In this document: piece by piece, positions 52,261 to 64,000 of the stretch
Layout: the number at the start of each line of letters is the position of its first letter
Position numbering within the stretch: position 1 is the first letter of the stretch
Source: Candidatus Bathyarchaeota archaeon
GTDB taxonomy: Archaea; Thermoproteota; Bathyarchaeia; 40CM-2-53-6; RBG-13-38-9
Reading direction: 5' to 3'
Assembly (NCBI GenBank): GCA_963807605.1
Contig: CAWECG010000003.1
Coordinates: forward strand, 1,093,265 to 1,157,264
DNA length: 64,000 nucleotides
Made by a program: the position numbers and the translations under genes
The notes under the pieces: model-generated
The model's input: only the letters and a program-made list of their open reading frames with translations
Told to the model about the DNA's origin: nothing
Database searches by the model: none

Positions 52261-53157
52261 TGGGTGACTAAGATCATCTGTGATAGTTGCCTAGAAGCCT
52301 TGAGATCCTATTTGAGCCTTAGAGGGCCAGGTGAACTTACCCACCCCTAAAGGGTGTGGGATTTCCCGCTCACCTTTTTTAAAGAGGGAGAATTAATCTG
52401 GCAACATTTAGGATCTATTGTTGGAATGCAAAAGATGATGCTTAGACTAGGCCAACGAATCAACGTTGTCCACAGAGTCAATAATAGTGATTCTGGCACA
52501 AGATACGGCTTTAATTTACACGAGATGCGGGATATCGCTCGGAGCTTATGGCATGAGAACGGATCCGATTTGAGTGTCGCAGAATTCACTCTTAGGCATT
52601 CAATCGATAAAAATGGGTATGACAGAATAATGACCTTGTCGCCGGATTATGCAATTAAAGAGTTCAAAAAGGCTGAACCCTACCTGAACTTGATGAGCGA
52701 AACGACGAGCTCGGAAACTCAGAGCGAGGTTTCGGCTCTAAAAATCCAAATCGCCTTACTGAATCTCAAAATGGAGGAGACAGTATTCTTTAGGAATCTA
52801 GAAAATTATCTAGAGGACCCTGAAGGTCTAATGATCCCCGCCGAGATCTCGTCGTTTGAGGCATGGACTAGCCAGAATTTGAACTACAAGTTTTTGCTAG
52901 AGAAGGATGCGGAGATCGCTAAAAAATATTACTCGGAGTCTGAAGTCAGACAGCATCTAGAATATCCACGGATCAATAGGAAGGTTTTGAATGCCTACTA
53001 CAAAGTGCTTTCCAAGAGACCTGAGCAGGAGATCTCCAAGCTGAAGGCTAAACAATTCAAGCAGCGGTATGGTTTTGCACCTAAAATGTTCTTCGAAACC
53101 CTGACGGTTGAGGAGAAAGATCAAATTCGCCGATTCAGTAGACCTCAACGAGGATGA
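52261..53157 (+). pseudogene. Tyrosine recombinase/integrase C-terminal remnant interrupted by mini-IS
   Basis: LEALRSYLSLRGP|VKEGELIW once 52331-52378 is removed; HEMRD (HxxR) and EFTLRHSIDKNGY (H...Y); N-terminus absent. Confidence 0.72.
52331..52378 (-). mobile_element. 48-bp solo-hairpin IS200/IS605 derivative (PATE-like)
   Basis: Minus strand TTAA|AAAAGGTGAGCGGGAAATCCCACACCCTTTAGGGGTGGGTAAGTTCAC = left end of the tnpB element fused to its right end. Confidence 0.88.
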
Positions 53158-53505
53158 CAATAAGATATTCCAAAGACTAGTTAGAGAGCACTAACGCACA
53201 GCGAGGTAAGGATCCACTTACAGAGCACGCGTGAATAGTACAAGCCTAGTATAAGACAAGTGCTGCTTTACCAAAGTACCGAGTTCAATACTTACTCTAC
53301 AAGTATAATAGTAGTTTGTACAATACAGTACTGCCCAGTCCATACATGGTTCTGGCTAACTACAAAAGTAGTAGTTGTTAGTGCGTTATTACTACTACTA
53401 GTTACTTGTTTAGCTAACAAAGTACTTCTTCTTAAGAACGTTAAATATGGTATACAATGTTATACGTGACTCTGCAAACTCCGTGGATATTTAACATCAT
53501 ATACC

Positions 53506-53646
53506 GACAAGAACTATACACTCGCCCAGTACAGGATAGCTGAGAAGTATCTTAACATAATCTCAGGATCAGCTGAGGTCTCCCAGCTCCAGGAAGAAAT
53601 GCAGAAACGCGACGAGGCTGTAAAGAAGCTCACAGCGCGCGCGTAA
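53506..53646 (+). pseudogene. Second integrase C-terminal tail fragment
   Basis: DKNYTLAQYRIAEKYLNIIS aligns with SPDYAIKEFKKAEPYLNLMS of the upstream remnant. Confidence 0.55.
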
Positions 53647-53658
53647 CTCTGGCGCGGG

Positions 53659-54061
53659 GTTTCAATCGCTCTATGATAGAATTGAAAGGCTCGGATTCGA
53701 CGAAGGAAACGGACAGCGAGATAACCAAGTTCTATGAAATAACCTAGGCCTTTTAAAGGAAAAACAATGATTTGGAAATAGTATCCAACTGGGATCCGTA
53801 GCAGCTATGGCATAAGGAAACCGTGAAGTCTCCAAGTAAGCTAGACCTGACAGAATCGGAGAATAACCCTAAGGAAAAACAGTAAAGTATCCAAGGGGAA
53901 GCAATAGTAGACCTGACTCGAGATAATCGAAATCTATTTAGAGAGAGTCAAAGTCAAAGAACCAAGAATAGCCGTGTACAAAAATGTGAAAAGAAGCAAG
54001 TGACCAGATGCTAACTAGGGCACGGGATCCGTAGGCAATCGATCTAGGGTAGAATTGAAAG
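53659..54061 (+). CRISPR. Two orphan CRISPR-repeat-like 30-mers (53659-53688, 54032-54061); not a regular array
   Basis: GTTTCAATCGCTCTATGATAGAATTGAAAG and TAGGCAATCGATCTAGGGTAGAATTGAAAG, 23/30 identical, both ending ATTGAAAG; no cas genes in window. Confidence 0.45.
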
Positions 54062-54243
54062 GCCTCGAGAAGTATCCAGATCAGGGTTCTGTTAAGTTGA
54101 TGGGACACGACTCTGCCTGTTAACAGTCGGGACATGGACAAAACAGGGTCAGTACGAACGGCTCAGCTAAGAAATGAAGAAAGTCCTTCAAGAATACATG
54201 GAAAGACACTAGCGACACACCGTTCATGTTCAACTACCCTTAA

Positions 54244-55589
54244 AAAAGGTGAGCGGGAAATCCCACACCCTTTAGGGGTGGGATGAAAACGAACTGGTAT
54301 CAGCATTATAAGCGGAGTTTACAAAAAATGTAGTGAGTACAATGCAGTCTTCAGTGCGCTATAGGCTTTACCCAACAAGGGAACAAGAGGAGGAGATATC
54401 TGCATACCTTGAGCTTTGCCGGTGGCTCTACAACTACTTCTTGGGAATAGTTAGGTGCAGTGTAAAGGCGCCAAAAAGGAAACTTCTACAAGAGATGATC
54501 CCTGCCCTATGCAGATACAAGCCTGAGCTTGAGAAGCTACACTCAAAGACACGGCAATACGTCCTCTACCAACTGTACTCCAATCTCAGGGCACTCTCTG
54601 AGATGAAGAAGAGAGGCAGGAAGGTTGGGAGGCTAAGATTCAAGGGACGTGGATGGTTCAAGGCCTTCATCTACAACCAATCTGGATTCTTAATCAAGCA
54701 TGGTGCAAAGCAGATACGACAGATGGGATTGCTCCACCTCAGCAAGATAGGAGACATCCCAATACGGCTGCATAGGAAGGTTGAGGGCGAAGTCAAACAG
54801 ATCATTATCAAGCGGTCTGCGAACGGCAAGTGGTATGCAATAACCTCCATCGAATATGACCATCCGATAAATACTAAGCCAGTGGACAGAAGCAAAATTG
54901 TTGGGGTAGATGTTGGCATAGTAAACTATGCCTACGATTCTAATGGAAGAGTGACCCCTCATCCGCATAACATCGACAAAAAACTGAAAAGACTCCAAAG
55001 AGAGCAGAGACGGCTATCAAGAAAGAAGAAGGAATCAAGAAACAGGATGAAACAGAAGGTCAAGGTCGCATCAATCCATGAGGAGATAACAAACTGCAGG
55101 AATGACTTCTTGCACAAACTCTCAAGATACTACGTTGACAAACACGATGTAATCTGCATGGAAGATCTGAATATTCAGGATTTGATGCAGGGGATCCGTA
55201 ATGCCAAGAATATGGCTGATGCTTCATGGGGAAGATTTGGAATGATGGTAGGGTACAAGGCTGAAACTGCCTGTAAACTACGAATCCAAGTACCGCCCCA
55301 GAACACCAGCCAGGATTGCAGTGGATGTGGCGCTAAAGTTCCTAAAACTCTTGCAGTGAGGATACACAAGTGTCCCCATTGTAGGCTAAAGATTGATAGG
55401 GACTTCAATGCATCACTCAATATAAGACGTTTAGGACTGGAAAGAATAGGGTGGGAACCATCCGAATACACGCCTGTGGAGATGAAGCCGCTACCCACCA
55501 TTATTGGTGGGCATGTTTCGTCGCTGAAGCAGGAACTTCTCTATCCGCAAGGGGAGAAGCCCACACCCTTTAGGGGTGGGTAAGTTCAC
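54244..55589 (+). mobile_element. Non-autonomous IS200/IS605 (IS1341-like) element carrying tnpB
   Basis: Identical hairpin CCCACACCCTTTAGGGGTGGG at both ends; TTAA 5' of left end; right end stops at TCAC; no tnpA. Confidence 0.88.
54333..55583 (+). CDS. tnpB: RNA-guided endonuclease TnpB
   Basis: YRLYPT, RuvC-I GVDVG, RuvC-II MEDL, Zn ribbon CSGC..CPHC, RuvC-III DRDFNAS. Confidence 0.95.
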   Translation: MSTMQSSVRYRLYPTREQEEEISAYLELCRWLYNYFLGIVRCSVKAPKRKLLQEMIPALCRYKPELEKLHSKTRQYVLYQLYSNLRALSEMKKRGRKVGRLRFKGRGWFKAFIYNQSGFLIKHGAKQIRQMGLLHLSKIGDIPIRLHRKVEGEVKQIIIKRSANGKWYAITSIEYDHPINTKPVDRSKIVGVDVGIVNYAYDSNGRVTPHPHNIDKKLKRLQREQRRLSRKKKESRNRMKQKVKVASIHEEITNCRNDFLHKLSRYYVDKHDVICMEDLNIQDLMQGIRNAKNMADASWGRFGMMVGYKAETACKLRIQVPPQNTSQDCSGCGAKVPKTLAVRIHKCPHCRLKIDRDFNASLNIRRLGLERIGWEPSEYTPVEMKPLPTIIGGHVSSLKQELLYPQGEKPTPFRGG

Positions 55590-56254: not shown

Positions 56255-56505
56255 AGGGATCTGCAGGCTGAGTCGTCAGAGACCCACGGTTAAAACCGTG
56301 GGCTTGAAATGGTGGTATTGATGCAAACTTTGACTAGACGGCTCGGCTCGCAGAGTCGGGTTAGCGGCGTGGAAGGCTACAAGCACGGCAAGTTACGAGA
56401 CCTAGACTTGCCCTCTGCGTCAGAACCACTAAATGGCACGGCTGTCAAACGTGATAGTCTAAGCCTTTCATGCAGCGTCGAAGGTCACAAAACTCCGAAA
56501 GGAGG
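56255..56505 (+). ncRNA. IsrB omegaRNA (HEARO-like): guide ~56255-56274, scaffold from 56275
   Basis: GTCA...TTGACTAG closing stem, GGAAGGCT/AGCCTTTC stem, GGCAAGT/ACTTGCC stem, terminal CTCCGAAAGGAG hairpin. Confidence 0.75.
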
Positions 56506-57576
56506 GCGAATATCGCCAACCCTCAAGGTTCCAGTTGTTGGCATTGATGGGAAACCATTGATGCCTACGACTCCCCAGAGGGCAAGAAAGCTGTTGAAGG
56601 ATGGAGTAGCGGAGAAACAGTGGAACAAGCTTGGGCAATTCTACATACAGATGCTAAGGCAGGTCGGCATTGGGAAGCAACTAGTATGTCTTGCAGAGGA
56701 TCCCGGAAGCAAGTGGGATGGAGTAGCTGTAGTTTCCAAGGAGTTGGTTTTGACATGTGGAATGCTTGTGCTTCCCTCAAAGGTGGCTGAGAAGGTTACC
56801 CAACGCAGAGAGATGCGTAGAGCTAGGCGATTCAGGAATACGCCGAGAAGAGCCAAACGGTTCGATAACAGACGTAGGCCAGATGGATGGATTACTCCAA
56901 GCCAGAAGGCAAAGGTAGACTTCCGAATTGAAATCGTAGACGAGCTATGCAAAATCTATCCCATCAATCAATTTGCTGCTGAGGATGTGCGATTCAACCA
57001 CTACAAGAAACGTTGGGGAAAACACTTCAGTACTGTTGAGATCGGTAAGGCAAAATTCTACAGTCATTTGAGAGGGCTTGGACAGTTGACTCTCTATAGG
57101 GGTGTAGATACTGTTGAGTGGCGTGATAAACTTGGTTTGTCAAAGAATAGTCGAAAGAACAGTTTAACTTGGGACTCTCATGCTGTAGATGCCATCGCCA
57201 TTGGATGTGCAGAGTTAGGCTGTGAGAATCCTTATCCGCCTGAATTCTGGGTTTGGAAACGCTTCGAGTACGCTAGGCGTCAGCTCCACAGACTTGAACC
57301 AGATAAGGGTGGTATCCGTAGAAGGTACGGTGGCTCATGGAGTATTTCACCATTTAGGAAAGGTGACGTGGTACAATACCCGAATGGAATTGCTAGAGTT
57401 GGAGGCTTCATGGACGATTTATCACTGCATAGATTTAGTCTGGCAAACAAACGTTTCACACAGACTGCGAAACTAGAAGAGTGTAAACGACTTTTCAATC
57501 AACAAATATTCAGCAGGTATGAGGTCCCCCAATTCATCCCACCCATGAATAGTGTGGGTTTCCTTGGGGGATTTTG
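56275..57576 (+). mobile_element. IS200/IS605-type element carrying isrB
   Basis: Ends GTCAGAGACCCACGGTTAAAACCGTGGGCTTG and CCCACCCATGAATAGTGTGGGTTTCCTTGGGGGATTTTG|ATGA. Confidence 0.82.
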
Positions 57577-57577
57577 A
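56309..57577 (+). CDS. isrB: IsrB (HNH-less IscB homolog, RRXRR family) RNA-guided nickase; true start uncertain
   Basis: PLMP motif, RuvC-I EDPGSK, Arg-rich bridge helix RREMRRARR, RuvC-II EDV, RuvC-III SHAVDA; no HNH or CxxC between RuvC-II and III. Confidence 0.85.
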   Translation: MVVLMQTLTRRLGSQSRVSGVEGYKHGKLRDLDLPSASEPLNGTAVKRDSLSLSCSVEGHKTPKGGRISPTLKVPVVGIDGKPLMPTTPQRARKLLKDGVAEKQWNKLGQFYIQMLRQVGIGKQLVCLAEDPGSKWDGVAVVSKELVLTCGMLVLPSKVAEKVTQRREMRRARRFRNTPRRAKRFDNRRRPDGWITPSQKAKVDFRIEIVDELCKIYPINQFAAEDVRFNHYKKRWGKHFSTVEIGKAKFYSHLRGLGQLTLYRGVDTVEWRDKLGLSKNSRKNSLTWDSHAVDAIAIGCAELGCENPYPPEFWVWKRFEYARRQLHRLEPDKGGIRRRYGGSWSISPFRKGDVVQYPNGIARVGGFMDDLSLHRFSLANKRFTQTAKLEECKRLFNQQIFSRYEVPQFIPPMNSVGFLGGF

Positions 57578-58911: not shown

Positions 58912-59203
58912 AAATGCCACAGAAATGCCTGAGACTATTTTCTCAGGGGATGGTGCCAGAGTTTGTCAAAGCAAGAATGTCGAGAATGCCAGAATGCCGC
59001 TTGGAAGTTTTGGCTTCCAGCAGCCTTATTTGGGGTCGCATCTTTTGGGGGATGGGTTCTAGGCGATAAGCCTCCGTTCCCAGATTGGATGGGACTCAGC
59101 CTACTCATAACTCTGAAAGCGAGTCCTCTACTTCAAAGTGATTTGTGTTATGTGGCTCAAGTCTGGGTGGAGAAGCAGATTGTCGTATTAAGTTTCTTCA
59201 ATA

Positions 59204-60676
59204 TGAAGCTGATCGTCGGCGTGGAGGAGGTGCTCATCGCCTCGTCATACGTCACCGTGACGGTGAAATTCCCGTTGCCGATGTCGTCCTGAGTGACCGT
59301 CGGCACGTTGGTCGTCACGCTGCTGACGGTCGGCACAGCGGGCGTAACCGTGACTTGCGCGGAGGACGGGGTATTGAGGCTGGGAACGTCGGCCGTCTGG
59401 TTCTCGGCGTCGTGCCGCCGCTGCGTTGCTCTCGGTGACGCTCACCGTCTGGCCTTTGGCGACCTGGATGGCGGTGAACGTGTGCGCCGTCGATCAGCGT
59501 CGCTGGTGCCGTCGGTCGTGACCGGTGACGCTCGTCGCCGCTGGGCAGTGCACTCTTGGCCGATGGGGTTGCCGTCGGCGAGCACTCCACCGTCGCCGCT
59601 GGTGACGCCGGTAACGTTGAAAGTGGAGGGCCTGGCGCTGCTGCGAGTTGTTCAAGTTGGTGGTCTGGCTGCTGCCGCCGCTGGGCGGCACGAAGGCCAC
59701 GCTGCTCGGCGCCGCCGGCGTGACCGTGGCGCAAGGGTTGGCCGGCGTTCGACGACGAATCGGCCGCGATCGTGACGGTGAAGGCTGCGGCGTCGGCGTG
59801 TCCGTGCCGTCGTTGGCGGTCACCGTGACCGTGACCGTGCCGGTGGCCCCCGCCGGCGGCCGCAACTCCAGCACGCCGTTCTGCGTGTCCGTGAAGATCG
59901 AGGTCGACTTGATCGTCACCGGAGTCACAAGTATACAATGCCGTTGGGTCCTGGGTGGAGCTTTCGTCCGCCATCGCCGCGATGGCCTGGTTCGACGGCT
60001 CGCCCGCCGTCTGAAAACCGAAGATCGTGTAGTTGAAGTCGAGGCCCCGGGTAGCCTCCTCCGTGACAAAGAACTCCTCGAGTTGGTGCTCGGGGTCGTT
60101 ACCCCGCCATGGCCAGAAGGCCGGCCGAGGTGAATTGGAGGTCGGGATTGAACTCCTCGGCCATCGCCGGCTGGTCGGGCTTGATGGCGCCGGTGGGCGG
60201 GTCATTGCCGCCTTGGATCACGAAGCGGGTTGCCGCTGGCGTCCATTGCCGTTGCGGTAAATCTGCGCCCGTTGTAGAACCCGCAATTGACCAGACTCTC
60301 GATCGCCGCGGTAGTGTTCGGCGCGAGATTGTCGAACAACTGGAAGTCCATCGTCTCGGTCGATGCCGTTGATGTCGACGTTCCAGTTGCAGGCTCTTGT
60401 TGGTCTGCGGCATGATCACCGGCGTGAGCTTCGAGTAGTCGGAAGCCGTCACCGCGAAGTTCAGCGTCGGCCCGGACTCGCTGCCGGCCAGGGGAATGAA
60501 AATCGTGGTTCCCGCCGGCATGCGTCACGTTGGCGATCGACCCCAGGCCGACCGGCTGAGCAGGCAGCGGCTCTCGAGCTGGTCGAACCTGGCCTGCCGG
60601 CGTATCCAAAGCGCCGGCAAGAACCATGGATGCGCGAGAGCGATCGCTTCGTATGAATCGAATGAGACTTCTTCAC
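59204..60676 (-). CDS. Secreted cyclophilin-type PPIase with Planctomycete extracellular signal (frameshifted, 3'-truncated)
   Basis: ARFDQLESRCLLS, FQLFDNLAPNT, FVIQGG, EEFNPDLQFTSAGLLAMA, LDFNYTIFG across frames. Confidence 0.72.
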
Positions 60677-61102
60677 GGTTGACTCCGCCAAAAAAGGGAC
60701 AATAGGGACTTCTCTCGGAAGAGAGCAAAGCCGCCTACCCAAGCCGGGGAGTCTTATAGCCTTCGCGGGTCGAAATCGCCGTTTCGCCTCGGGAAACGTG
60801 TCATTACGTGCCGCGCACGGTATAGGATGCCCTCCCGCCGCGCCGCCGGCCGTCCGGATCGGCTCACGCCTTATCAGAAAAATCCGTGAAAACGGTCGGC
60901 CCCTGGAAGCCCAGCCGGAATTGCAGACCCTCTTTCTCACCCGGCCTTGCGTTGTTCCGATTCACCCATTCTAACCTATGAGTCGGAAAGCCACAAAGAA
61001 AAAATGAGGGGCCGGCGTCGGCTTTGCCGGAGAGTCTGCCGCGCCGGGGCGTAAGGGGGGGGCCGCCTTTGCCGATCCTGTTGATGCGAGGAAATTTAGC
61101 GA

Positions 61103-62378
61103 TTATTCCTCGCAGCACGGCCCAGGCGGTCTCGATGTGCCCAAGGGGGCGCTGACTTGAATGCCGGCCACCCGCCGGCGGACCCGGGCGACCGACTCCC
61201 GCGCCACGGCCACGCCCACGGCCAACTGCTCCTCGCGGCCGGCCGCCGCGGCCATCCGCTCCAGCACCGCGTCGGGCACGACCACCCCCGGCACCTCGTT
61301 CCGCATGAACAGGGCGTTGCGGTAGCTCACCAGCGGCCAGACGCCGGCGAGGATCGGGATGCCCAGCGGCTGAGACTCGTCGAGCATCCCCAGCAGGGCG
61401 TCGGGGTGAACACCGGGTGGGTGATGGCGAATTCCTCCCTCCTGCACTTTCCGGCGGAAGCGCTGGACTTCGCGGCGGCGGTCCAGGTCCGTAGGGTCCA
61501 GGCCGACGCCGATCACCGCCATCGTCTGCGGGTCGATGGCCTGGCCGCCCAAGTCGATGCCGGCGTTCAGCGGCGCTGCACGGCGACCATGCCGATCGAG
61601 TCGGCGTCGAACACGCCGGTGGCGTGCGGATAGTCGCCCAGCTTGGGCGGATCGCCGGTCACGAACAGCAGGTTGCGGATGCCGCAGGCGGCGCAGGCCA
61701 ACAGGTCGGCCTGCATGCCGATCAGGTTGCGGTCGCGGCAGCAGAAGTGCAGCACGGCCTCGATGCCCGCCTCCCGCTGGATGCGGTCGGCGGTAACCAG
61801 CGGCGAAATGCGAGCTGGCCCGCGGACCGTCGGGGATATTGATCGCCGAGACGCCGCGCTCGCCGAGCGTGCGGCTTTTCGCCACGGTGCTGCTCAGGTC
61901 GTAGCCGCGGGGCGGCACGATCTCGCGTCTCGAAGATGATGAAATCGGCCCCTCCCTCCCGCAGGGCGCCGGCCTGCTCGGCAATCATCTCCTCGACCAG
62001 CCCCGTAGGGCGGGCGGCGAGGGGAGCGGCCCGATCGAGCCGGCCACGAGAACTCGCGGCCGGAAGCGGCGTCTGCCACCCGCCGGGCCGAGACCGCCCC
62101 GGCGCGGTTGATGCCCGCACCTTGTCTCCCAGGCCGAACTTGGCCAGCCCCACGGGTTCGCCCCGAAGGTGTTGGTGGTCAGCACGTCGGCCCCGGCCTC
62201 GCAGTATTCGCGGTGGATGGCCTCGATCAGTTTGGGTCGGCGAGGACGACTGGTCGAACGAGCGGTTGGTGAAACGTGGTGCCGGTAGATCTCCGTGCCC
62301 ATCGCGCCGTCGAAGACGAGCACGCCGCGCGCGGAGGGCGTCGGAGAAGATCGGCGGCTCGGCACGGGCGGCGGTCAT
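61103..62378 (-). CDS. Bifunctional homocysteine S-methyltransferase/MTHFR (YitJ-like), frameshifted
   Basis: VFDGAMGTE, GADVLTTNTFGAN, NIPDGPRAS, HFCCRDRNLIGMQ, TGDPPKLGDYP, NEVPGV across frames. Confidence 0.8.
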
Positions 62379-62415
62379 GATAAGCCGTTTAGCGGGCGGG
62401 CTTGCCCGCCGGTTA

Positions 62416-62528
62416 CTCCGTTCCCACGGTCCTCCGTGGGAACGCCGCGAGTGGCCGCTCGGCGGCCCTTCCCGACTCGGGGACGCAGAGCCCACTCAGT
62501 GCGTTCCCACGCGGAGCATGGGAACGAG
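62416..62528. repeat. REP-like palindrome doublet
   Basis: CGTTCCCACGG-TCCT-CCGTGGGAACG (62419-62444) and CGTTCCCACGC-GGA-GCATGGGAACG (62502-62526). Confidence 0.7.
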
Positions 62529-62539
62529 AAAATAGTACG

Positions 62540-62934
62540 CGTGCCAGAAGTCGCCACCACCGCCGCCGCCGAAATCACCGCCGCCGCCGCCGAAGTCACC
62601 ACCACCACCACCACCGAAATTACCACCGCCGCCGGCATCGCCGCCAAAATCACCGCCGCCGCCGGGGTCGCCGCTGAAATCGCCGGCGCCGGAATTCCCG
62701 GCGACGAGCCCGAGTCGCCGGACATGATCCCGCCGCCCCCCTAACGACCCCCGGCCGCCGCGAAAGGAGTCATAGAGCCAACTGCCCGCGGCCGCGCCGA
62801 ACATCCCGCCCGAGCATCGACTGGAAGAAGCCGCCGCCCCCGCCGGAAAGGCCAGGCGAAGCGGCGCCCTCAAGTGCCACCGAGCCCAACAGCGAAAGCA
62901 AGCGGGACATGGGAAATCTCCGGGAATAAGGCAT
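62540..62934 (-). CDS. Gly-rich protein or fragment with GGDFGGG repeats (frameshifted; boundaries approximate)
   Basis: GGGGFFQSMLG, GMFGAAAGSWLYDSF, (GGDFGGGG)n. Confidence 0.5.
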
Positions 62935-63087
62935 TTGATCTGCCATCGTCCGCACCTCTATGAGTGTGCGGTTTCACCCATCGCTGAGAATTCTAGCAAA
63001 CCCAGGCAGATTGACAACGCCCCGGCCGGCAACGACAATACGGCCAGCCTTCGTTTTTTGCCTCTTTCCGATCGAAAGGGTTTTGGC

Positions 63088-64000
63088 GATGATGCTCAGA
63101 GTCCAGATGGCGGCAGGCAGTCTTCGCGTCGGGAGTTTCTTCAGCGGTCGGGCAGTGCGGGTGGCGGCCGCGGCCCGGCGGGCCATTGACGGCCCGCGGC
63201 TACGCCGGCGAAGAGAACACGATCAAGATCGCCCTGGTGGGCTGCGGCGGGCGGGGCACGGGGCGGCCGCCCAGGCCCTGAGCAACCGAGGGCCCCACCA
63301 AGCTCGTGGCCATGGCCGATTTTTTCCCGCAAAGATGCCGGGCAGCATCCGCCAGCCGCGCCAGCATTCCCCAAGCAGATCGACTCCCGCCGGAGCGGCA
63401 GTTCACCGGGCTGGACGGCTACCGCAAGGCCATCGATGCGCTCCCCCGGCGACGTGGTGCTGCTGGCCACGCCGCCGGGTTCCGGCCGCTCCACCTGGAA
63501 TATGCGGTCCAGAAAGTCGTGCAACGTGTTCATGGAAAAGTCGTTCGCCGTGGATGCCCCCGGCATACGCCGCGTCCTCAGGGCGGGCAGGAAGCCGGCC
63601 AAGAAGAACCTCAAGATCGCCTGCGGCCTGATGACCCGCCATTACCGCCCGCTGGAAGAGGCCTCGGGCAAATCCACAAGGGCCTCATCGGCGACTCATC
63701 ACCTGCTGGGCTTACCGCGAGCACGCCGGTGGGGCTTCCCGCCCCGGCCGCCGGGCGCGAGCGAAATGGCCCAGCAGATCCGCAACTACTACTGCTTTAC
63801 CTGGCTCAACGGCAGTTTCATCCTGGACTGGCTGATCCACAATCTCGACGTGTGCTGCTGGGGCAAGGAGGCCTGGCCGGTCTCGGCCCAGGGGCAAGGC
63901 GGGCGCCAGGCCCGCACCGAGCCCGATCCGCTGTTCGACCACTACGCGATCGAATACTGTTCGCCGACGGCACGCGGCTGTTCGCCCAGGGCCGGCACAT
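63088..64000 (+). CDS. Tat-exported Gfo/Idh/MocA oxidoreductase (frameshifted, runs off window)
   Basis: SSRREFLQ twin-arginine motif, TIKIALVGCGGRGTGAA, ATPPG, VFMEK, IHNLDV across frames. Confidence 0.78.

Follow-up and report, generated by a model that had tools for sequence, protein, structure and literature searches.

Solitary type I-B CRISPR repeats among mobile-element remnants of a Bathyarchaeia genome are most likely inert array relics

Results and discussion

Two CRISPR-type repeats between an integrase fragment and a TnpB element

The window, that is, the whole 64,000-nucleotide stretch that was analysed, corresponds to the end of contig C3 in the genome assembly of a Bathyarchaeia archaeon (five contigs, 2.65 Mb, 94% complete). 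The locus starts with the C-terminal remnant of a tyrosine integrase (53488..53646, about 49 amino acids), delimited by tblastn against an intact paralogue (C3:85827-86789). A leader-like flank of at most 24 nt (53635..53658), ending in CTGGCGCGGG, directly precedes a near-canonical type I-B CRISPR repeat (R1, GTTTCAATCGCTCTATGATAGAATTGAAAG, 53659-53688). After a unique non-coding interval (53689..53953) comes a 130-nt block that belongs to a three-copy family (the U-block, 53954..54083); it is made up of a second, diverged CRISPR repeat (R2, TAGGCAATCGATCTAGGGTAGAATTGAAAG, 54032-54061) with about 78 nt upstream and 22 nt downstream. The block is followed by the left-end fragment of an IS6-family element (54084..54212), whose terminal inverted repeat (GGTTCTGTTAAG..., 54084-54136) leads into internal sequence, and by a TnpB-only IS200/IS605-type element of 1351 bp (54239..55589) that leaves both repeats outside. 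Apart from the interval, to which no strand is assigned, all these features lie on the forward strand.

R1 matches the canonical repeat of the lineage at 28/30 positions and R2 at 25/30. They are identical to each other at 23/30 positions over the full 30-mer, or at 25/28 in the register given by the repeat finder. Both have the same orientation, their starts are 373 nt apart and the gap between them measures 343 nt. R2 has lost the first four bases of the repeat (TAGG instead of GTTT) and keeps an intact 3' handle, ATTGAAAG, which begins at 53681 in R1 and at 54054 in R2. From the end of R2 to the left end of the TnpB insertion sequence (54239/54240) there are 178 nt. A preliminary description of this DNA had reported a 30-mer and a 23/30 copy 373 nt further on, the latter ending about 180 nt before the tnpB left end and both lying within mobile-element debris. 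All of this holds: the boundary of the element is set by its approximately ten other genomic copies, and the debris can now be named as the integrase fragment, the IS6-family end and the TnpB element.

In the complete 2.65-Mb assembly, only seven of the 5.3 million oriented positions match the canonical repeat at 23/30 or better, six of them being clear repeat relics, and the shuffled window yielded no match to R1 at three mismatches or fewer. Given the 28/30 and 25/30 matches, the likeness of R1 and R2 to CRISPR repeats is thus not due to chance. Rfam recognizes R1 weakly as CRISPR-DR6 (20.6 bits, under the gathering score). Three other sites of the genome, C2:2943-2972(-), C4:622707-622736(+) and C3:976576-976605(-), resemble the canonical repeat at 21-23/30 positions and may be further decayed relics.

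A type I-B repeat family of the Bathyarchaeia

R1 and R2 are true derivatives of CRISPR repeats, as judged by sequence comparison, and their family is that of the type I-B repeats of the Bathyarchaeia, a 30-nt sequence of the form GTTTCAATCG(A/G/C)TCTATGGTAGAATTGAAAG. In a genome of the same family (G002), an array of 41-42 repeats with a 66-nt period (G002:C23) is built from GTTTCAATCGATCTATGGTAGAATTGAAAG, a sequence that differs from R1 by two mismatches and is identical to another solitary relic of the host genome (C2:83893). The repeat is present in 17/61 sampled relatives and on more than 120 contigs of the JGI metagenomes, with arrays of up to 81 units. On one of these contigs (L095, Ga0315312_1002799), an array of 54 repeats stands directly behind a cas operon, after a leader of about 120 nt. 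The operon comprises cas6, a 490-aa gene in the cas8b position, cas7, cas5, cas3, cas4, cas1 and cas2, and its cas1 matches the type I-B model with 453 bits. Similar type I-B operons are found in G043 and in G006, a genome of the same family. The preliminary description had taken the repeat for a Cas6 substrate from its ATTGAAAG end, a guess that agrees with the cas6-bearing operon in front of the metagenomic array, and it had proposed a comparison with the CRISPR repeats of the host; a lack of similar repeats in host and relatives would have spoken against its readings, and the relatives hold plenty of them.

The family also occurs as isolated units, of which the metagenome contigs contain 26 distinct examples. 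The exact R1 30-mer was not found among the JGI metagenome contigs, the repeat was not found in the 2.9 million viral contigs of IMG/VR, and the variant carried by the U-blocks was not found in genomes of other species. Comparison of the relics with 80 metagenomic repeat loci detected no flank homology beyond the repeats themselves among the matches listed. The 22-nt tail of R2 weakly resembles a spacer in two metagenomic loci (L150 and L151), but the likeness is not convincing.

Some loci of this family show regularities of their own. In four metagenome contigs (L131, L134, L150 and L151), one to three repeats are followed, about 1.28 kb further, by a solitary repeat whose upstream flank is conserved (...CCTAAAAGGTCAA); a similar sequence (...CCTAAAAGG) precedes the C2:83893 relic of the host. 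C/G-rich palindromes (CCCCCTAGGGG-like) follow solitary or mini-array repeats in G028 (L017, L025, L027), G040 (L015) and G006 (L038). Some of them are near-identical between loci of one genome, and they may be spacers against a hairpin-ended element or the ends of such an element.

The upstream side of R1 resembles a truncated leader

The integrase remnant is 86% identical to its intact paralogue over amino acids 251-299 (tblastn) and 94.6% identical over 53506-53634 (blastn). The homology stops at 53634 and a new stop codon occupies 53644-53646. The integrase fragment leaves at most 24 nt before R1, about 10 nt of which (...CTGGCGCGGG) are similar to leader ends. In metagenomic arrays with at least four repeats, the first repeat is preceded by GG in 15/20 distinct leaders and by GGG in 12/20; directly before the internal solitary repeats of metagenome contigs, GG occurs in 3/26 and GGG in 0/26. 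A comparable site is found in a genome of the same genus (G001), where ...CTGGCGGGG is followed by one repeat with a degenerate 3' part, and where about 70 nt upstream resemble, by eye, the leader of the 81-repeat array. On the grounds of the GGG junction counts and of this leader-like relic, R1 was probably the first repeat after the leader in an array that has collapsed and whose leader was cut short. A functional array would carry a leader of at least about 100 nt with a promoter at this position, where an integrase-gene fragment is found instead. By eye, nothing like a TATA box is seen in the 70 nt before R1, and a TTTTAAA motif lies at about 53749, some 280 nt before R2.

Another trace of insertion lies further upstream in the window. 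A second, more distant integrase gene (ORF 52354-53157) contains a solo-end scar, a piece of about 50 nt (52331-52382) that, in inverted orientation, matches the TnpB element at both ends (100% to 54240-54282).

No array and no cas operon in the host genome

A k-mer array finder detected no CRISPR array in the host genome, and none of its contig ends carries a partial repeat. Profile searches of the genome produced no match to Cas6 (PF01881, PF10040, TIGR01877), RAMP proteins, Cas2 or type I-B Cas7, and only sub-threshold matches of the Cas3 core to generic helicases; Cas5 and Cas4 are absent from the assembly as well. When all the ORFs from six cas loci of relatives and metagenomes were compared with the genome by tblastn, the only cas genes with matches were solo Cas1 genes (22-34% identity), the few other matches being to non-cas neighbouring genes and helicases. 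The genome has two Cas1 genes, neither of which has cas neighbours, and their matches were therefore rejected as a sign of CRISPR: the only Cas1 of this genome is solo and casposase-like.

Since Cas6 was detected in just 8/105 genomes of the order and 5-6% of the genome may be missing, the lack of cas genes in a metagenome-assembled genome is weak evidence by itself, but it is strengthened here by the contiguity of the assembly. A cas locus or an array may possibly lie in the missing part. Among the relatives, G002 has its long array yet no detectable Cas6, and G001 has no Cas6 and only a leader with one degenerate repeat. The relic sites were also considered as syntenic counterparts of the relatives' array loci, an idea that was rejected: the G002 array adjoins genes syntenic with C1:276-283 kb and the G001 relic adjoins genes syntenic with C3:909 kb, and these matching sites in the host are not relic sites. 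As regards the assembly itself, GC content passes from 45-49% to 61-70% over the last 5 kb of the window (59000-64000, the contig end), where the ORFs have no clear Pfam family. The ends of C3 and C4 are alike in composition and could correspond to a chimeric join or to foreign DNA.

The sequence between the repeats was searched for the remains of a longer array or for an RNA of its own. TRF found no tandem repeats in it. Candidate degenerate repeats picked by eye (GGGATCCGTAG..., TAGACCTGAC...) had background-level scores in an ungapped scan, which gave three positions at 15/30 or better where 1.2 were expected. No DNA or translated homologue of the interval was found elsewhere in the host genome or in the fetched metagenome loci, and the 105 genomes of the order contain a single 25-nt match (E 3.5e-4). 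Nor did the 36 nt after R1 or the whole interval match the host genome above 12-16-nt noise, and IMG/VR contains no exact copy of the first 30 nt after R1. A structured RNA between the handles was rejected too: the predicted fold of the 373-nt unit is no better than that of shuffled sequences (z = +1.3), and Rfam reports nothing beyond the sub-threshold hit on R1. Where a functional array would have at least three repeats at a period of about 66 nt, with unique spacers and cognate Cas6 and effector genes, there are two units 373 nt apart in a 94%-complete genome where such genes were not detected.

These observations bear on the possibility that the locus still works, with cas genes hidden in the 5-6% of the genome that is not assembled and a Cas6 that acts in trans on an R1-R2 precursor, from which a functional RNA of about 370 nt would be released. 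The two repeats have kept the handle and their common orientation, the genome is 94% complete, and CRISPR loci are often missing from metagenome-assembled genomes, as illustrated by the G002 array and its undetected Cas6. Nevertheless, an assembly of only five contigs, with no partial repeat at any contig end and no array anywhere, hardly favors a hidden system, and the congeneric G001 has no Cas6 either. The 373-nt unit has no excess structure, the interval resembles nothing in the order apart from the 25-nt match, and the R1 30-mer itself is absent from the JGI metagenome contigs. A working orphan locus is thus very unlikely.

The R2 block was copied together with an IS6-family end

The U-block that contains R2 has two other copies in the host genome, C1:401486-401593(-) and C4:636528-636672(-), the three being 86-89% identical to one another. 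The handle ATTGAAAG is perfect in R1 and in 2/3 U-block copies. The repeat portion differs between copies by one base, which, with the conserved handle, could be a hint of constraint, although the flanks are similarly conserved. In the window and on C4, the same 22 nt join the U-block to the terminal inverted repeat of an IS6-family element. In relatives, IS6-type ends of the same kind bracket elements, one of which encodes a DDE_Tnp_IS240 transposase, and the unrelated flanks around such ends fix the boundary of the element at about 54084. Complete copies of this transposase are found elsewhere in the host genome. Repeated DNA makes up 20-73% of the sequence within 1 kb on either side of the relics, compared with 10% genome-wide.

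On C1, a partial repeat at C1:394787 has 43 nt in common with the local U-block (half of the CRISPR repeat and 23 nt) and is followed by an IS6-like end. These 43 nt (the 3' 20 nt of the repeat plus 23 nt) form a direct repeat, C1:394764-394806 and C1:401466-401508, whose copies flank 6.7 kb of DNA with many small repeated elements; immediately before the lower copy stands a (GT)n run. The motif AGACTTGACAGAACC is found 8-11 nt outside an IS6-type terminal repeat in three places (C4:270464, C3:444438 and C1:394787), and in view of this recurrence the "spacer" that follows the C1 repeats may be sequence associated with the insertion sequence rather than a spacer. In a genome of another family (G059:C52, L013, 101-170), an IS6-like end (GGGTTCT...TGTTAAC) follows an array of two repeats at a distance of 38 nt, exactly one spacer length, and this may be another example in which an insertion sequence has truncated an array of the same repeat family.

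Solitary repeats that travel with mobile elements may have a function of their own. In a CRISPR-bearing host, such units could act as RNA anti-CRISPRs (Racrs), decoys that soak up type I-B Cas6 or Cascade. Both R1 and R2 are solitary by the SRUFinder criterion (PMC10651486): each matches a whole repeat and lacks a partial one within 100 bp. They lie among an integrase fragment, an IS6 end and OMEGA-type elements (TnpB and IsrB), the U-block is multi-copy and moves with the IS6 end, and isolated copies are common in metagenome contigs, with the 26 distinct cases mentioned above. Yet about 90% of the proviruses that bear solitary repeat units are in CRISPR-positive hosts, and 83% of those units match the subtype of the host (PMC10651486), whereas the present assembly contains no type I-B genes, and so no cognate system to be decoyed. 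Furthermore, the surroundings of the repeats do not resolve into an intact virus, plasmid or integrated element, the repeat is absent from IMG/VR, the leader or promoter region of R1 and the 5' end of R2 have been lost, and conservation of the flanks equals that of the repeat. A decoy function is consequently unlikely.

The neighbouring TnpB element

The ORF of the TnpB element (54333-55583) has the Pfam domains OrfB_IS605, Cas12f1-like_TNB and HTH_OrfB_IS605. About ten other copies of this insertion sequence, with 94-96% identity, are dispersed in the genome; their similarity to the window's copy starts at 54229-54243, and they have neither a common upstream flank nor a repeat nearby. A TnpB element of a different family (30% amino-acid identity) lies about 156 nt downstream of the C4 U-block, in the same orientation, and the TnpB start codons of the two elements are at similar distances from the repeat (272 nt for R2, 271 nt for the C4 copy). 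In an empirical null, a TnpB start is found 150-400 nt downstream of an oriented site in 0.1% of cases genome-wide and in 0.5% near repeated DNA. A third IS200/605-like left end after the C1 U-block was considered and rejected, as it consists of a weak hairpin with no TnpB and no other copies. Close to the element, the window also contains an IsrB/IscB-type OMEGA element (56275-57577) with a 422-aa ORF that has an RRXRR domain. An Rfam HEARO RNA (56275-56493; 61.6 bits, gathering score 83) overlaps the start of this ORF, and a diverged copy of the element (81%) is located at C4:566715-568021.

A TnpB element 156-178 nt downstream of 2/3 U-blocks is unexpected if the locus is pure junk. One reading is that of a nascent partnership, in which TnpB elements would land beside CRISPR repeats or recruit them, as has been proposed for the origin of Cas12. 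The two elements come from different families and share orientation and distance, both values of the null are low, and on the 1.16-Mb contig neither family has a TnpB locus other than the window's element. Nevertheless, IS200/IS605 elements encode the guide RNA of TnpB at the 3' end of the gene rather than 5' of their left end, and here the repeats are outside both elements, R2 being 178 nt beyond the left end, and are not common to the TnpB copies. Neither the ten or so other copies of the window's element nor the relatives reproduce the association: 23 repeat-bearing stretches fetched from relatives yielded no gene for TnpB, IsrB or an IS6 transposase. Both insertions are inside remnants of a dead IS6 copy, which is a tolerated target. 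Since the test was moreover post hoc and n = 2, the adjacency is a lead and not a finding, and a nascent TnpB-repeat partnership seems extremely improbable. We also hold it to be highly improbable that TnpB elements prefer to land just downstream of junctions between CRISPR repeats and IS6 ends, or that the block present in three copies serves as a mobile RNA decoy directed at type I-B systems. If the former were true, decaying arrays would repeatedly put a Cas6-type repeat upstream of tnpB, which would be starting material for a Cas12-like capture of repeats.

An inert relic of type I-B arrays

The explanation that we favor, and consider very likely, is that R1 and R2 are inert relics of type I-B arrays in a genome that has lost, or no longer shows, its cas operon and arrays. 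In a working system of this lineage, Cas6 would cut the type I-B repeat and leave ATTGAAAG as 5' handle. Once the cas genes had been lost, one or several arrays would have decayed, in an order of events that we reconstruct as follows. Recombination may have reduced one array to a leader stump and R1, and the integrase-gene fragment joined upstream would have cut the leader to 24 nt or less; like the copying of the R2 block, this step is shown in part and reconstructed in part. Elsewhere, IS6-type elements would have inserted at most one spacer length behind repeats and taken the neighbouring repeat block along or duplicated it. The R2 block is present three times, and the identical IS6-end junction of two copies suggests that it was spread by IS6-type mobilisation of adjacent DNA or by recombination between IS copies. 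The TnpB element would have inserted later, about 155 nt inside the IS6 remnant. With no Cas6 and no Cascade, the repeats have nothing to act on; they would be neither processed nor used today, and any transcript would come from read-through.

Among the readings offered in the preliminary description, those of an eroded array and of solitary repeat units fit this scenario, with the type I-B family identified and a leader-like junction kept at R1, and its remark that cas genes are lacking extends from the window to the whole assembled genome (profile searches and tblastn). The Cas6-excised RNA of about 370 nt is disfavored by the lack of Cas6 and effector genes in a 94%-complete genome, by the loss of the 5' GTTT of R2 and by the fold (z +1.3). 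An early TnpB-repeat association fares no better, with repeats outside the insertion sequence, about ten other copies without a repeat and no TnpB at the loci examined in relatives.

The outcome is mostly a clean negative one: with genuine repeats of an identified family and subtype, the locus can be explained without the exciting readings. In this almost closed genome of the Bathyarchaeia, it also shows what is left when CRISPR loss has run its course, namely a leader stump and its repeat on one side and diverged blocks copied by insertion sequences on the other, in a host unusually rich in TnpB, IsrB, IS6 and casposon-like elements. Beyond the routine, the locus offers a clear view of the scattering of repeat blocks driven by insertion sequences and a small puzzle in the TnpB adjacency. 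Such sites should not be annotated as CRISPR loci, and searches for RNA anti-CRISPRs or proto-Cas12 systems should regard them as background as long as neither expression nor Cas binding has been demonstrated.

Comparison with known systems

The arrangement shares some traits with several known systems. As in the association of Cas12 with arrays, a TnpB gene lies less than 300 nt from a CRISPR-type repeat. Unlike R1 and R2, which are 5' of the left end and outside the element, the omega RNA of TnpB overlaps the 3' end of tnpB and the right end of the element.

CreA of the CreTA modules and the crlRNAs (10.1101/2024.12.27.630466) are degenerate repeats that keep the 5'-handle part, as is the case here. 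They consist of two repeat-like units separated by a pseudo-spacer of 30-40 nt, which partly matches a promoter, they are located beside cas genes and they need Cascade. In contrast, R1 and R2 are separated by a 343-nt gap, the 36 nt after R1 have no genome match above noise, there is no target match, and neither a cas locus nor Cascade was found.

The Racrs (Camara-Wilpert et al. 2023, PMC10651486) are, like R1 and R2, single mimics of CRISPR repeats in a mobile-element setting and not linked to cas genes. However, they are carried by viruses or plasmids just downstream of a promoter, expected within about 250 bp, in hosts with a matching system. Around R1 and R2, no carrier element can be delimited, the leader of R1 is truncated with no evident promoter, and the host assembly contains no cognate Cas.

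With the type I-B arrays of the Bathyarchaeia (L095, G002:C23), R1 and R2 share the 30-nt family (GTTTCAAT...TAGAATTGAAAG), the palindromic ends and the ATTGAAAG handle, and R1 also the GGG junction between leader and repeat. Unlike these arrays, the locus has two units only and lacks the 66-nt periodicity, the spacers, a full leader and a cas operon.

The standalone repeats described in earlier work (10.1101/2023.03.03.530964; PMC8616872) are mostly inside or beside cas loci, which they often regulate, whereas no such locus is present in this assembly. The same literature (Shmakov et al. 2023, 10.1101/2023.03.03.530964; PMC8616872) describes orphan and degraded arrays in which repeat-derived sequence outlasts the working array, as it does here, and an end state of array collapse that consists of a leader stump and one repeat, as at R1. 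The locus is therefore a new instance of an already known type of relic, that of decayed repeats, stumps made of a leader and one repeat, and standalone repeats.
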